Part shown: positions 22,355 through 22,969 of the stretch, one piece after another
Position numbering within the stretch: position 1 is the first letter of the stretch
Layout of the letters: each line of letters starts with the position of its first letter
Assembly (NCBI RefSeq): GCF_013122565.1
Contig: NZ_CP053258.1
Length of the DNA: 64,000 nt
From: Escherichia coli
GTDB taxonomy: Bacteria > Pseudomonadota > Gammaproteobacteria > Enterobacterales > Enterobacteriaceae
Reading direction: 5' to 3' (one strand)
Program-made: the position numbers and the translations under genes
Notes under the pieces: model-generated
What the model saw: only the letters and a program-made list of their open reading frames with translations
The model's database searches: none
What the model was told of the DNA's origin: nothing

Positions 22355-22969
22355 TTTTCGATCCTTTCATTGTGTTGTCGCACATCCCTGGTGCGTTCTG
22401 TCGACGCATCTTTCAGGATGTAACAAAGTGTTTGCAAGGTCGAGTATAAGGAAAGTTACAGCTTCGGGAAGCGAAAAATGCTGGATTTTAAAGAGAGGTC
22501 ATGTTTTGCAACTTAATGGTTACATTTGTTTGACATAAACAGAGGGAAGGACTGGCTACTAAGGCTGATTAGATAACATATGGGCAAAACTATTTGGAAT
22601 ATGAGAACGGTTGCGCTCCTTTAATGTGTTATGCCATATAAAGTCACTGGCGCAGGGAGCGCGCAGGGGGCGGCCAATCGCCGCCGCCCCCTGCCCCCCC
22701 AGGCTCTGGCGAACAAAATCGCCGCTGCGCGGTTCCCTCAGCTTATCCCTTGCGGCTACCGGGTCGGGCGCAAGGTAACGTCCCTGTAAGATGCGCCCTC
22801 GCCGCGCATCCATGCGCGTCGCCCCGGCCTCCAGGGAACGCTTCGGCGATTTTGACGCCACCAACACCCGTGCGGTCTTTTTGTAAAGAGCTATAAGCCG
22901 ATTACATAATTAATAGCTCACCTTTGTCTGGAATGAGTTATCTCTAGTAATGGCTTAATATACAGCGAA

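Follow-up and report, generated by a model that had tools for sequence, protein, structure and literature searches.

The TRIP1 family of intergenic repeats, first reported by Rudd in 1999, comprises five locus-specific types in Escherichia coli, TRIP1a to TRIP1e, with 1–5 copies per genome (Li et al. 2024, Genes 15:236, PMC10888264). A 'double-Y' RNA fold has been predicted for the family and chromosomal inversions between its copies have been documented, its function being left open (PMC10888264). One type, TRIP1d, is 264 bp long and lies 96 bp past the stop codon of alx and 255 bp ahead of the start codon of sstT; it was present in 1565 of 6725 genomes, always in a single orientation, with a published ensemble energy of −145.4 kcal/mol (PMC10888264). 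Here we compare with this repeat a GC-rich block that lies between alx and sstT in a 64,000-nucleotide stretch of the E. coli contig NZ_CP053258.1 (assembly GCF_013122565.1). This whole stretch is referred to as the window, and positions are window positions unless another sequence is named.

A second described system that bears on the locus is the RNA motif TwoAYGGAY (RF01731), whose closing P1 stems are often very long (Weinberg et al. 2010, supplement). In the published motif alignment, its Psychromonas members are multi-copy and one of them carries the same second loop, ACAGGGACGU, as the window block. Gardner and Eldai (PMC4333381) proposed that TwoAYGGAY is a CsrA-binding RNA.

TRIP1 is a GC-rich, non-coding intergenic repeat of approximately 260–290 bp found in Escherichia, Klebsiella and Pseudocitrobacter. 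Its copy between alx and sstT is probably a passive, structured, non-coding repeat and recombination substrate, similar in kind to repetitive extragenic palindromic (REP) sequences and miniature inverted-repeat transposable elements (MITEs).

The alx–sstT block and its place in TRIP1

In the window, sstT (21110–22354) and alx (22970–23935) both lie on the minus strand, separated by a gap of 615 bp. GC content in 100-bp windows is 0.63–0.74 across 22600–22899, as against 0.36–0.40 on both flanks, which bears out the GC-rich block between AT-rich flanks described by a first-pass annotation made from the letters alone. The 9-bp all-GC hairpin picked out at the same time is also present (gggggcggc at 22666–22674 pairs with gccgccccc at 22683–22691 around a loop of 8 nt), its perfect stem extending to 12 bp (22663–22674 with 22683–22694). 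The runs of five C (22687–22691) and seven C (22694–22700) are there too, as is an Arg/Ala/Gly-rich open reading frame (ORF) of 102 aa that spans the block on the minus strand (22559–22867, GTG start).

The published offsets of TRIP1d sum exactly to the gap in the window (96 + 264 + 255 = 615) and place the repeat at 22610–22873. The block is 87.5% identical over 287 bp to the K-12 copy between yohP and dusC (TRIP1c) and 87.6% identical over 267 bp to that between lysO and aqpZ (TRIP1a). The K-12 copy between putP and efeU (TRIP1b) is internally deleted, and both of its flanks match the block; taken together, the sister copies at these three loci are 86–90% identical to it. The marks of the family are approximately 84–94% similarity to the TRIP1a–e references over about 264 bp, a GC content of 62–65% and a very stable predicted 'double-Y' fold. 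The block agrees with these in similarity, offsets and GC content, and in a stable fold with two branched domains, the ensemble energy of the window copy being −146.7 kcal/mol, as against the published −145.4 kcal/mol. Locus, length class and population frequency are likewise held in common with the repeat of Li et al. By sequence and position, the block is a copy of TRIP1d and belongs to an intergenic repeat family already described in the literature. Nothing substantive sets it apart from other TRIP1d alleles, only a handful of point substitutions that include the origin of the C7 run. A reading of the block as a decayed repeat or gene remnant had been offered; 'repeat' was apt and 'decayed' was not, as this is an intact, well-conserved member of a named family. 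Similarity between copies extends over approximately 22609–22895, slightly beyond the published boundary and beyond the extent first flagged.

The whole gap was compared by megablast with 5426 complete E. coli genomes. It is present as in the window, with TRIP1d, in 1659 of them, a frequency comparable to the published 1565 of 6725. Positions 256–539 of the query (window 22610–22893) recur at other places in almost every complete genome; all but one of the 5426 (5425) contain the repeated sequence, with a median of 4 places per genome, a count that includes the conserved flank next to sstT. In K-12 the gap is 398 bp long, and only the approximately 190 bp beside sstT align to the window, the remainder being different sequence. 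This K-12-type allele, found in 3820 of the 5426 genomes, contains another multi-copy repeat (median of 5 places per genome). The block is absent from the gap in approximately 70% of complete E. coli genomes, most of which carry the different repeat there. The distal half of the alx–sstT gap is therefore described as an essentially bi-allelic landing site, each allele holding a different repeat, and TRIP1d is one of its two alternative insertions.

The K-12-type repeat lies at positions 3085–3250 of locus L001, at the site of window ~22545–22967, and carries the motifs CCCTCTCCC...GGGAGAGGG...GGGTGAGGG, which resemble those of Box C.

This bi-allelic arrangement argues against a dedicated sstT leader. 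A structured 5′ leader on the sstT strand was among the first-pass suggestions. Such a leader, or an sstT riboswitch, would be in keeping with the block's position upstream of sstT, its strand and its stable fold, but is very improbable: most E. coli lack the block in this gap, the allele-conserved ~190 bp beside sstT leave it out, the same element flanks unrelated genes in either orientation and no riboswitch family matches in Rfam. The linkage to a regulated gene across strains and species that marks a cis-regulatory leader is not seen, and the reading is effectively refuted already. A small RNA on the alx/sstT strand is possible.

The conserved fold and the reading frame across it

Both strands of the 291-nt block are approximately four standard deviations more stable than their own dinucleotide shuffles, with similar single-sequence energies and z-scores (minus strand, −141.7 kcal/mol, z = −3.95, with 0 of 200 shuffles as good; plus strand, −131.0 kcal/mol, z = −3.84). 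For the family as a whole, 65 distinct full-length cores from all sources were aligned (alignment A6) and tested against the RNAalifold consensus, in which hairpins 1 and 2 were made to follow the Rfam alignment. The features of the window copy are as follows.

22610–22873, minus strand: TRIP1d as published, placed by the offsets of Li et al.; 86–90% identical to sister copies; the minus strand gives the TwoAYGGAY-like fold
22874–22895, minus strand: 5′ extension of the similarity between copies (GCUCUUUAC...CCGCAC), conserved as GC.CTTTA...C.GCAC in Escherichia and Pseudocitrobacter copies (alignments A3 and A4)
22844–22862, minus strand: 5′ arm of the long closing helix P1 (GGUGGCGUCAAAAUCGCCG), pairing with 22706–22724; 13 consensus pairs, 3 of them compensatory; inverted repeat I1
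22706–22724, minus strand: 3′ arm of the long closing helix P1 (CGGCGAUUUUGUUCGCCAG), pairing with 22844–22862
22754–22829, minus strand: TwoAYGGAY-like core, with inner stem GGCCGGGG and CCCGGUAGCC around hairpins 1 and 2; helices 4 and 5 of the consensus
22801–22820, minus strand: hairpin 1, loop CAUGGAUG, with GGA in a loop of 4–6 nt; compensatory pairs 48–67, 51–64 and 53–62; aligns with the first AYGGAY hairpin of RF01731
22766–22798, minus strand: hairpin 2, loop ACAGGGACGU; GGA in 65 of 65 copies; inner pair A-U or G-C (27 versus 38)
22663–22694, minus strand: all-GC hairpin with a 12-bp stem and an 8-nt loop, in the 3′ domain of the repeat; inverted repeat I4
22649–22669, minus strand: imperfect 11-nt direct repeat CCCUGCGCGCU / CCCUGCGCC; one unit fewer at loci L029 and L096, one extra at L143 (alignment A6)
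22610–22664, minus strand: terminal helix, GCGCGCUCC with GGAGCGC round a variable AT-rich loop, the element finishing with the invariant AGGAGCGCAA; helix 13, 8 pairs
22694–22700, plus strand: C7 homopolymer, a strain-specific variant
22559–22867, minus strand: ORF of 102 aa, not a gene

Standard base pairs fill 99.0% of the 4574 cells of this structure in the 65 copies, as against 37–46% when the partners are slid by 1–3 columns. Thirteen pairs changed on both sides, and the covariation score is 0.156, compared with 0.082 ± 0.003 for shuffled alignments, none of which reached 0.156 (0 of 500); covariation counts are of sequences and not of independent events. Compensatory pairs are spread over P1 (the outer stem), the second stem, hairpins 1 and 2, a small hairpin, the terminal helix and the base of the GC hairpin. 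Several pair switches do not go back to a single event, because they are seen within the Klebsiella subfamily as well as between subfamilies. The family is kept as a set of nested helices, consisting of the closing stem, the two-hairpin GGA core, the 12-bp GC hairpin and the terminal helix, by compensatory substitutions; the word 'structured' in the first-pass annotation was right.

The outer stem of hairpin 2 changes from GGGCGCG/CGCGCCC in E. coli to GGGCCG/CGGCCC in Klebsiella, a switch seen by eye in A5 and A6 and masked from the counting tool by gap placement. In the copies of ST131 and E1V33, two C-G pairs of the GC hairpin are replaced by A-U, and the invariance of helix 12 in the metagenome sample holds by construction, as that sample was picked on an exact 30-mer in the GC hairpin. 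The loop of the terminal helix differs between the Escherichia and Klebsiella subfamilies. Loop 1 (AUGGAU) is invariant in all 64 copies that have it. Loop 2 follows the pattern CA-N-GGA-Y-G across the family, with GGA invariant in 65 of 65 copies and AGGGAC in the window; its variable position is G in 40 copies, C in 16 and U in 5, and is missing in 3, which are one nucleotide shorter.

The consensus energy on the 65 copies is −102.3 kcal/mol in the window's minus orientation versus −74.7 kcal/mol in the other. Counting G-U against A-C pairs in 19 copies gave approximately 90 G-U cells in each strand's own fold, and the 51 pairs shared between the folds contained only 5 G-U versus 1 A-C, too few to decide the strand.

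The fold also bears on the 102-aa frame. That this Arg/Ala/Gly-rich minus-strand ORF encodes a protein has next to no chance of being correct. It is open in the window, and a few RefSeq genomes have comparable ORFs labelled 'hypothetical protein', but the frame is broken in 17 of 19 copies: a stop stands at codon 23 in 14, frameshift or deletion truncates 3 more, and the window and one close relative are alone in keeping it open. The substitutions that break the frame are the very ones that keep hairpin 1 paired, and the TRIP1d-specific substitutions that remove the codon-23 stop are those that re-pair hairpin 1. Most copies have stop-free runs of 80–97 codons on both strands, in line with a GC content of 65–70%, and no Pfam family matched the 102-aa ORF or the two plus-strand ORFs (52 and 55 aa) at E ≤ 1. 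The frame is a by-product of GC-rich sequence; TRIP1d encodes no protein and is not tied to sstT or alx. Two RefSeq 'hypothetical proteins' of approximately 100 aa, WP_001441093.1 and WP_001323669.1, lie across or beside TRIP1 copies (L158 255–557, E. coli ZH49; L006 2665–2967), and such calls over TRIP1 are probably spurious artefacts of a GC-rich repeat.

A slippage-prone, phase-variable tract at the C5 and C7 runs, another of the early suggestions, is exceedingly improbable. A 7-nt homopolymer is indeed present, and the nearby imperfect 11-nt direct repeat, the sole length-variable tract found in the element, has one, two or three units depending on the copy. The C7 run, however, arose by an A-to-C substitution: 11 other TRIP1d alleles (4 from complete genomes and 7 from other sources) read CACCCCC where the window reads CCCCCCC, at equal length, and there is neither a coding frame nor a promoter spacer to switch.

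An intrinsic terminator was considered for the GC hairpin and rejected. It has no U tract after it, the next letters being GCGCUCC on the minus strand and CCCCCCAGG on the plus strand, and a scan of 22300–23050 showed no terminator-like site on either strand. The same scan showed no minus-strand promoter-like site in the gap, a result that says nothing on expression.

Spread, mobility and gene context

A 19-mer scan of one genome per species, in which approximately 10 chance matches in unrelated taxa and 2 low-coverage contaminant contigs were discarded after BLAST, recovered full TRIP1 copies in E. coli, E. albertii, E. whittamii, two further Escherichia species and two Pseudocitrobacter species. 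The discarded contigs (L012 and L027, from assemblies named 'Pseudobutyrivibrio' and 'Bacillus' in GTDB) are very short, have coverage below 1× and carry E. coli-type TRIP1; they are almost certainly E. coli contamination. BLAST of a plasmid collection for distant matches, a collection that includes mislabelled chromosomes, added Klebsiella pneumoniae and K. aerogenes, and also Citrobacter and Phytobacter. One 5.37-Mb K. pneumoniae chromosome record holds 13 TRIP1-like places. As to a phage origin, 50,697 phage records gave no TRIP1 match. Metagenome contigs scanned with a 30-mer gave at least 120 loci, many of them at contig ends. One of these, a Klebsiella-type contig from a human-gut metagenome (L041 1550–3480), contains three tandem units of ~654 bp, each made up of a cluster of REP sequences or bacterial interspersed mosaic elements (BIMEs) with a 117-bp period and 2.3 copies, followed by a TRIP1-like element.

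Two further metagenome loci (L059 ~2560–2900, with a name that looks like the JGI Ga-series, and L122 ~1290–1620) carry the exact 30-nt GC hairpin and the ACCGCGCAGCGGCG segment as in TRIP1. Their interior differs, having one GGA-containing loop and no AUGGAU hairpins, and they may be distant relatives outside the Enterobacteriaceae.

In Pseudocitrobacter, the TRIP1 module is part of a larger unit of 629–634 bp that is 96% identical between the two species and lies at different loci, mdlB–glnK in one and pntB–uspE in the other. In each unit (the two are at L025 5256–5922 and L014 1806–2465), a TRIP1 module is accompanied by an oppositely oriented TwoAYGGAY core that scores above threshold, and the ends are terminal inverted repeats of 19–25 bp. 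The P. vendiensis unit is flanked by a perfect 13-bp duplication (TCCCTTACGGGGG) of the apparent pntB terminator hairpin, and the P. faecalis copy by a degenerate 13-bp duplication in which 9 of 13 positions match by eye. When the ends of the unit are set against those of the insertion sequence IS1 (from K-12 IS1A), 15 of 23 positions agree in register (P ~ 0.005 by shuffling). These features are direct evidence for the transposition of a unit in which a TRIP1 module is included. In the 5426 E. coli genomes, module B, the Pseudocitrobacter extension, gave one weak partial match at an unrelated locus.

TRIP1 resembles REP/BIME sequences and MITEs such as ERIC and Correia elements in being short, non-coding, palindromic, multi-copy and intergenic beside gene 3′ ends, in its presence/absence polymorphism between strains, in being interleaved with REP clusters in Klebsiella and in having a Pseudocitrobacter relative with terminal inverted repeats and a target duplication. 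It differs from them in that it lacks the REP consensus, that its E. coli copies lack inverted repeats and target duplications, and that its copy number in E. coli is very low (1–5). The naRNA4 covariance model, which detects REPs elsewhere (window 30700–30781 and several other loci), had no match in 22000–24400. The paired marks of a MITE, terminal inverted repeats and a target-site duplication, were found only in the 629-bp Pseudocitrobacter unit.

Gene context was surveyed in 53 distinct metagenome contexts among the matches listed, with crude ORF calls of at least 150 aa. Relative to the TwoAYGGAY-like orientation of the element, the flanking genes are convergent in 22 of the 53; in another 22 they are co-directional with the element antisense, and in 9 co-directional with the element sense. 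None is divergent, and therefore TRIP1 always abuts at least one gene 3′ end in these contexts, which is typical of REP- or MITE-like repeats. At alx–sstT, TRIP1d is in the sense orientation relative to both genes. More widely, TRIP1 copies stand next to unrelated genes in both orientations, and orientation differs between strains at the same locus. This unfixed orientation to host transcription weakens read-through models that need one strand.

At yohP–dusC and lysO–aqpZ (L005 2445–2831 versus L007 5067–5438, and L003 versus L008), the element is inverted between strains with the flanking genes unmoved. Short non-repeat intergenic flanks are replaced as well, which a simple crossover inversion between two TRIP1 copies does not give. 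The midpoint between K-12 TRIP1a (915 kb) and TRIP1c (2229 kb) is at ~1.57 Mb, presumably near the replication terminus.

If TRIP1d is a passive repeat of this kind, transposition or recombination would have brought the family to gene 3′ ends, and what the family conserves would be its hairpins. At this locus the copy would mainly be passive DNA spacing the end of alx from the promoter region of sstT, and would act as a homologous-recombination substrate with its sister copies, in line with the documented TRIP1 inversions (PMC10888264). A recombination substrate is the only documented role of TRIP1, with no demonstrated effect on alx or sstT. TRIP1d is oriented like alx and sstT, and transcription running on from alx would therefore make the TwoAYGGAY-like folding strand; an RNA role such as CsrA binding would then be possible.

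Several observations weigh against the passive reading. 'Passive' is inferred from distribution, not measured. The invariant loops and the many compensatory changes could equally mean a selected RNA function instead of selfish persistence, and the consensus energy, which in these models favours a minus-strand RNA, hints at selection on one strand, suggestively and short of proof. No terminal inverted repeats or target duplications were found at the window copy or at five other E. coli copies. As E. coli copies are also confined to five fixed loci, recent mobility in this species is not shown, and no transposase partner has been identified for TRIP1. The E. coli copies may be eroded relics, or TRIP1 may be cargo of the Pseudocitrobacter unit.

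TRIP1d could instead work as REP sequences do, at the RNA level in the 3′ region of alx, by halting 3′ exonucleases or by pausing or insulating transcription between alx and sstT. The element lies 74–96 nt past the stop codon of alx, in sense orientation and with no canonical terminator found in between. Its fold is highly stable, each of the 53 contexts among the matches listed places the family against a gene 3′ end, and in Klebsiella it is interleaved with REP clusters. Such a role is nevertheless quite improbable, as approximately 70% of strains do without the block here, orientation is variable at other loci, the missing U tract is at odds with an intrinsic terminator and the sequence-specific invariant loops would be left unexplained.

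For annotation, the block is to be labelled a TRIP1d repeat, and not a gene, an sstT leader or a phase-variable tract. Strains with TRIP1d have one more partner for recombination, TRIP1 copies being documented substrates of large chromosomal inversions. Added here to the published description are the range in Klebsiella, with a higher copy number, and in Pseudocitrobacter, the compensatory fold, the TwoAYGGAY-like core and a transposon-like relative whose target duplication is clean. After 25 years as a 'repeat of unknown function', TRIP1 can now be tested for being a CsrA ligand or a mobilisable hairpin module.

TwoAYGGAY likeness and CsrA

In an Rfam scan run in E-value mode, RF01731 aligned full-length to 22716–22855 on the minus strand (31.1 bits, E = 0.027). 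The gathering score of the model is 43 bits, and TRIP1 copies stay below it: 31.1 bits in the window, 30.9 in K-12 and 29.6–31.0 in Pseudocitrobacter. Klebsiella TRIP1 copies gave no match to RF01731 at E ≤ 1. In both Pseudocitrobacter species an above-threshold TwoAYGGAY core (49.2 bits, E down to 8.5e-7) lies approximately 100 bp from the TRIP1 module in the opposite orientation.

TRIP1 shares with TwoAYGGAY two adjacent hairpins 1–2 nt apart, an inner stem and a long outer P1, here 22844–22862 with 22706–22724. Its loops are broadly of the CAUGGAUG type, loop 1 reading AUGGAU and loop 2 A-N-GGA-Y (AGGGAC in the window), set against AYGGAY in each loop of the motif. It is also multi-copy in genomes, as are the published Psychromonas repeats, and an above-threshold member is linked to its module in Pseudocitrobacter. 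The differences are a score of 31 bits against the gathering score of 43 with no match in the Klebsiella relatives, a second loop with G or any base where the TwoAYGGAY consensus has Y, an extra 3′ domain of approximately 110 nt made up of the GC hairpin and the terminal helix, and a far higher GC content. The core is a candidate relative on the strength of model alignment, called TwoAYGGAY-like and not filed as a member, because of its sub-threshold score, the lack of a Klebsiella match and the additional ~110-nt 3′ domain.

This likeness raises the question of whether TRIP1 is a functional TwoAYGGAY-type RNA, in which the GGA loops of the alx/sstT strand, approximately 30 nt apart, would bind a CsrA dimer, with the effect of titrating CsrA or of bringing it to the host transcript, at the alx 3′ region or in read-through into sstT. 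Such a function is possible but unlikely. Pointing towards it are the full-length alignment of RF01731 to the minus strand, with similar scores in the K-12 and Pseudocitrobacter copies; the above-threshold TwoAYGGAY (49.2 versus 43 bits) in the same Pseudocitrobacter repeat; an invariant loop 1 and a loop 2 that keeps the A(N)GGA pattern with N free; the occurrence of the ACAGGGACGU loop among Psychromonas TwoAYGGAY copies; a consensus fold that favours the minus strand; and the published proposal of CsrA binding for the motif (PMC4333381). On the other side stand the sub-threshold score and the missing Klebsiella match, the lack of any identified promoter and an inconsistent orientation to neighbouring genes, such that read-through would give antisense only in 22 of 53 contexts and sense only in 9 of 53. 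Selection on hairpins at the DNA level would yield the same covariation.

Further counts concern the GGA sites themselves. The ACA-GGA-UGU hairpins resemble the CsrA consensus RUACARGGAUGU obtained by systematic evolution of ligands by exponential enrichment (SELEX), from which other TRIP1 copies differ by 1 mismatch and TRIP1d by 2. Sites with up to 2 mismatches to this consensus, however, are common by chance (10 in the 64-kb window), and GGA is not enriched in the element, with 6 observed versus 6.7 expected.

GGA in hairpin loops resembling high-affinity CsrA sites is also what TRIP1 has in common with the small RNAs CsrB, CsrC and RsmZ. RNAs of this type carry roughly 9–22 GGA sites, whereas TRIP1 has only two conserved ones, lacks a dedicated promoter and terminator as well as a signal in crosslinking and immunoprecipitation sequencing (CLIP-seq), and is a dispersed repeat, not a single gene. 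The many enriched GGA sites and the in-vivo CsrA association of a CsrB/CsrC-type sponge are not seen.

In the E. coli CsrA CLIP-seq table of Potts et al. (2017), searched by gene name, coordinate prefix and sequence, no peak contains TRIP1 sequence, and dusC and ybjE are scored 'No'; this absence is weak evidence, as multi-mapping reads or low expression could hide peaks. The 3′-end mapping supplement of Adams (2021) has no entries for the flanking genes, and intergenic names in the style of RIL-seq (RNA interaction by ligation and sequencing) gave no matches in the literature.

As a broader proposal, TRIP1 would be an enterobacterial GC-rich branch of TwoAYGGAY that works as RNA, its two GGA loops forming a bipartite high-affinity CsrA site; on these models this is unlikely. 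Were it true, strains with TRIP1d (~30% of E. coli) would have CsrA bound to read-through RNA from alx a short way upstream of sstT, and gene 3′ ends in Escherichia and Klebsiella would be acquiring CsrA-binding modules from a mobile repeat. A link of TRIP1 to TwoAYGGAY or CsrA appears neither in Li et al. 2024 nor in the TwoAYGGAY papers in the literature searched, and is possibly new. Among functional hypotheses for TRIP1, CsrA binding is the best.

Elsewhere in the window, the 5′ region of alx (23936–24218, minus strand) gave no Rfam match to yybP-ykoY, the Mn riboswitch or pH-responsive element, even at E ≤ 10 on a 361-nt slice. The alx leader has been described as a member of this class; its E. 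coli version may be too divergent for the model or its filters, or the leader may not lie at the assumed position. Matches above the Rfam gathering thresholds were found to naRNA4, a REP/BIME-derived RNA, at 30700–30781 on the plus strand (70.4 bits), and to the small RNA ES036 (39 bits) and a tRNA, at 5831–5873 and 46354–46426, respectively, both on the minus strand.

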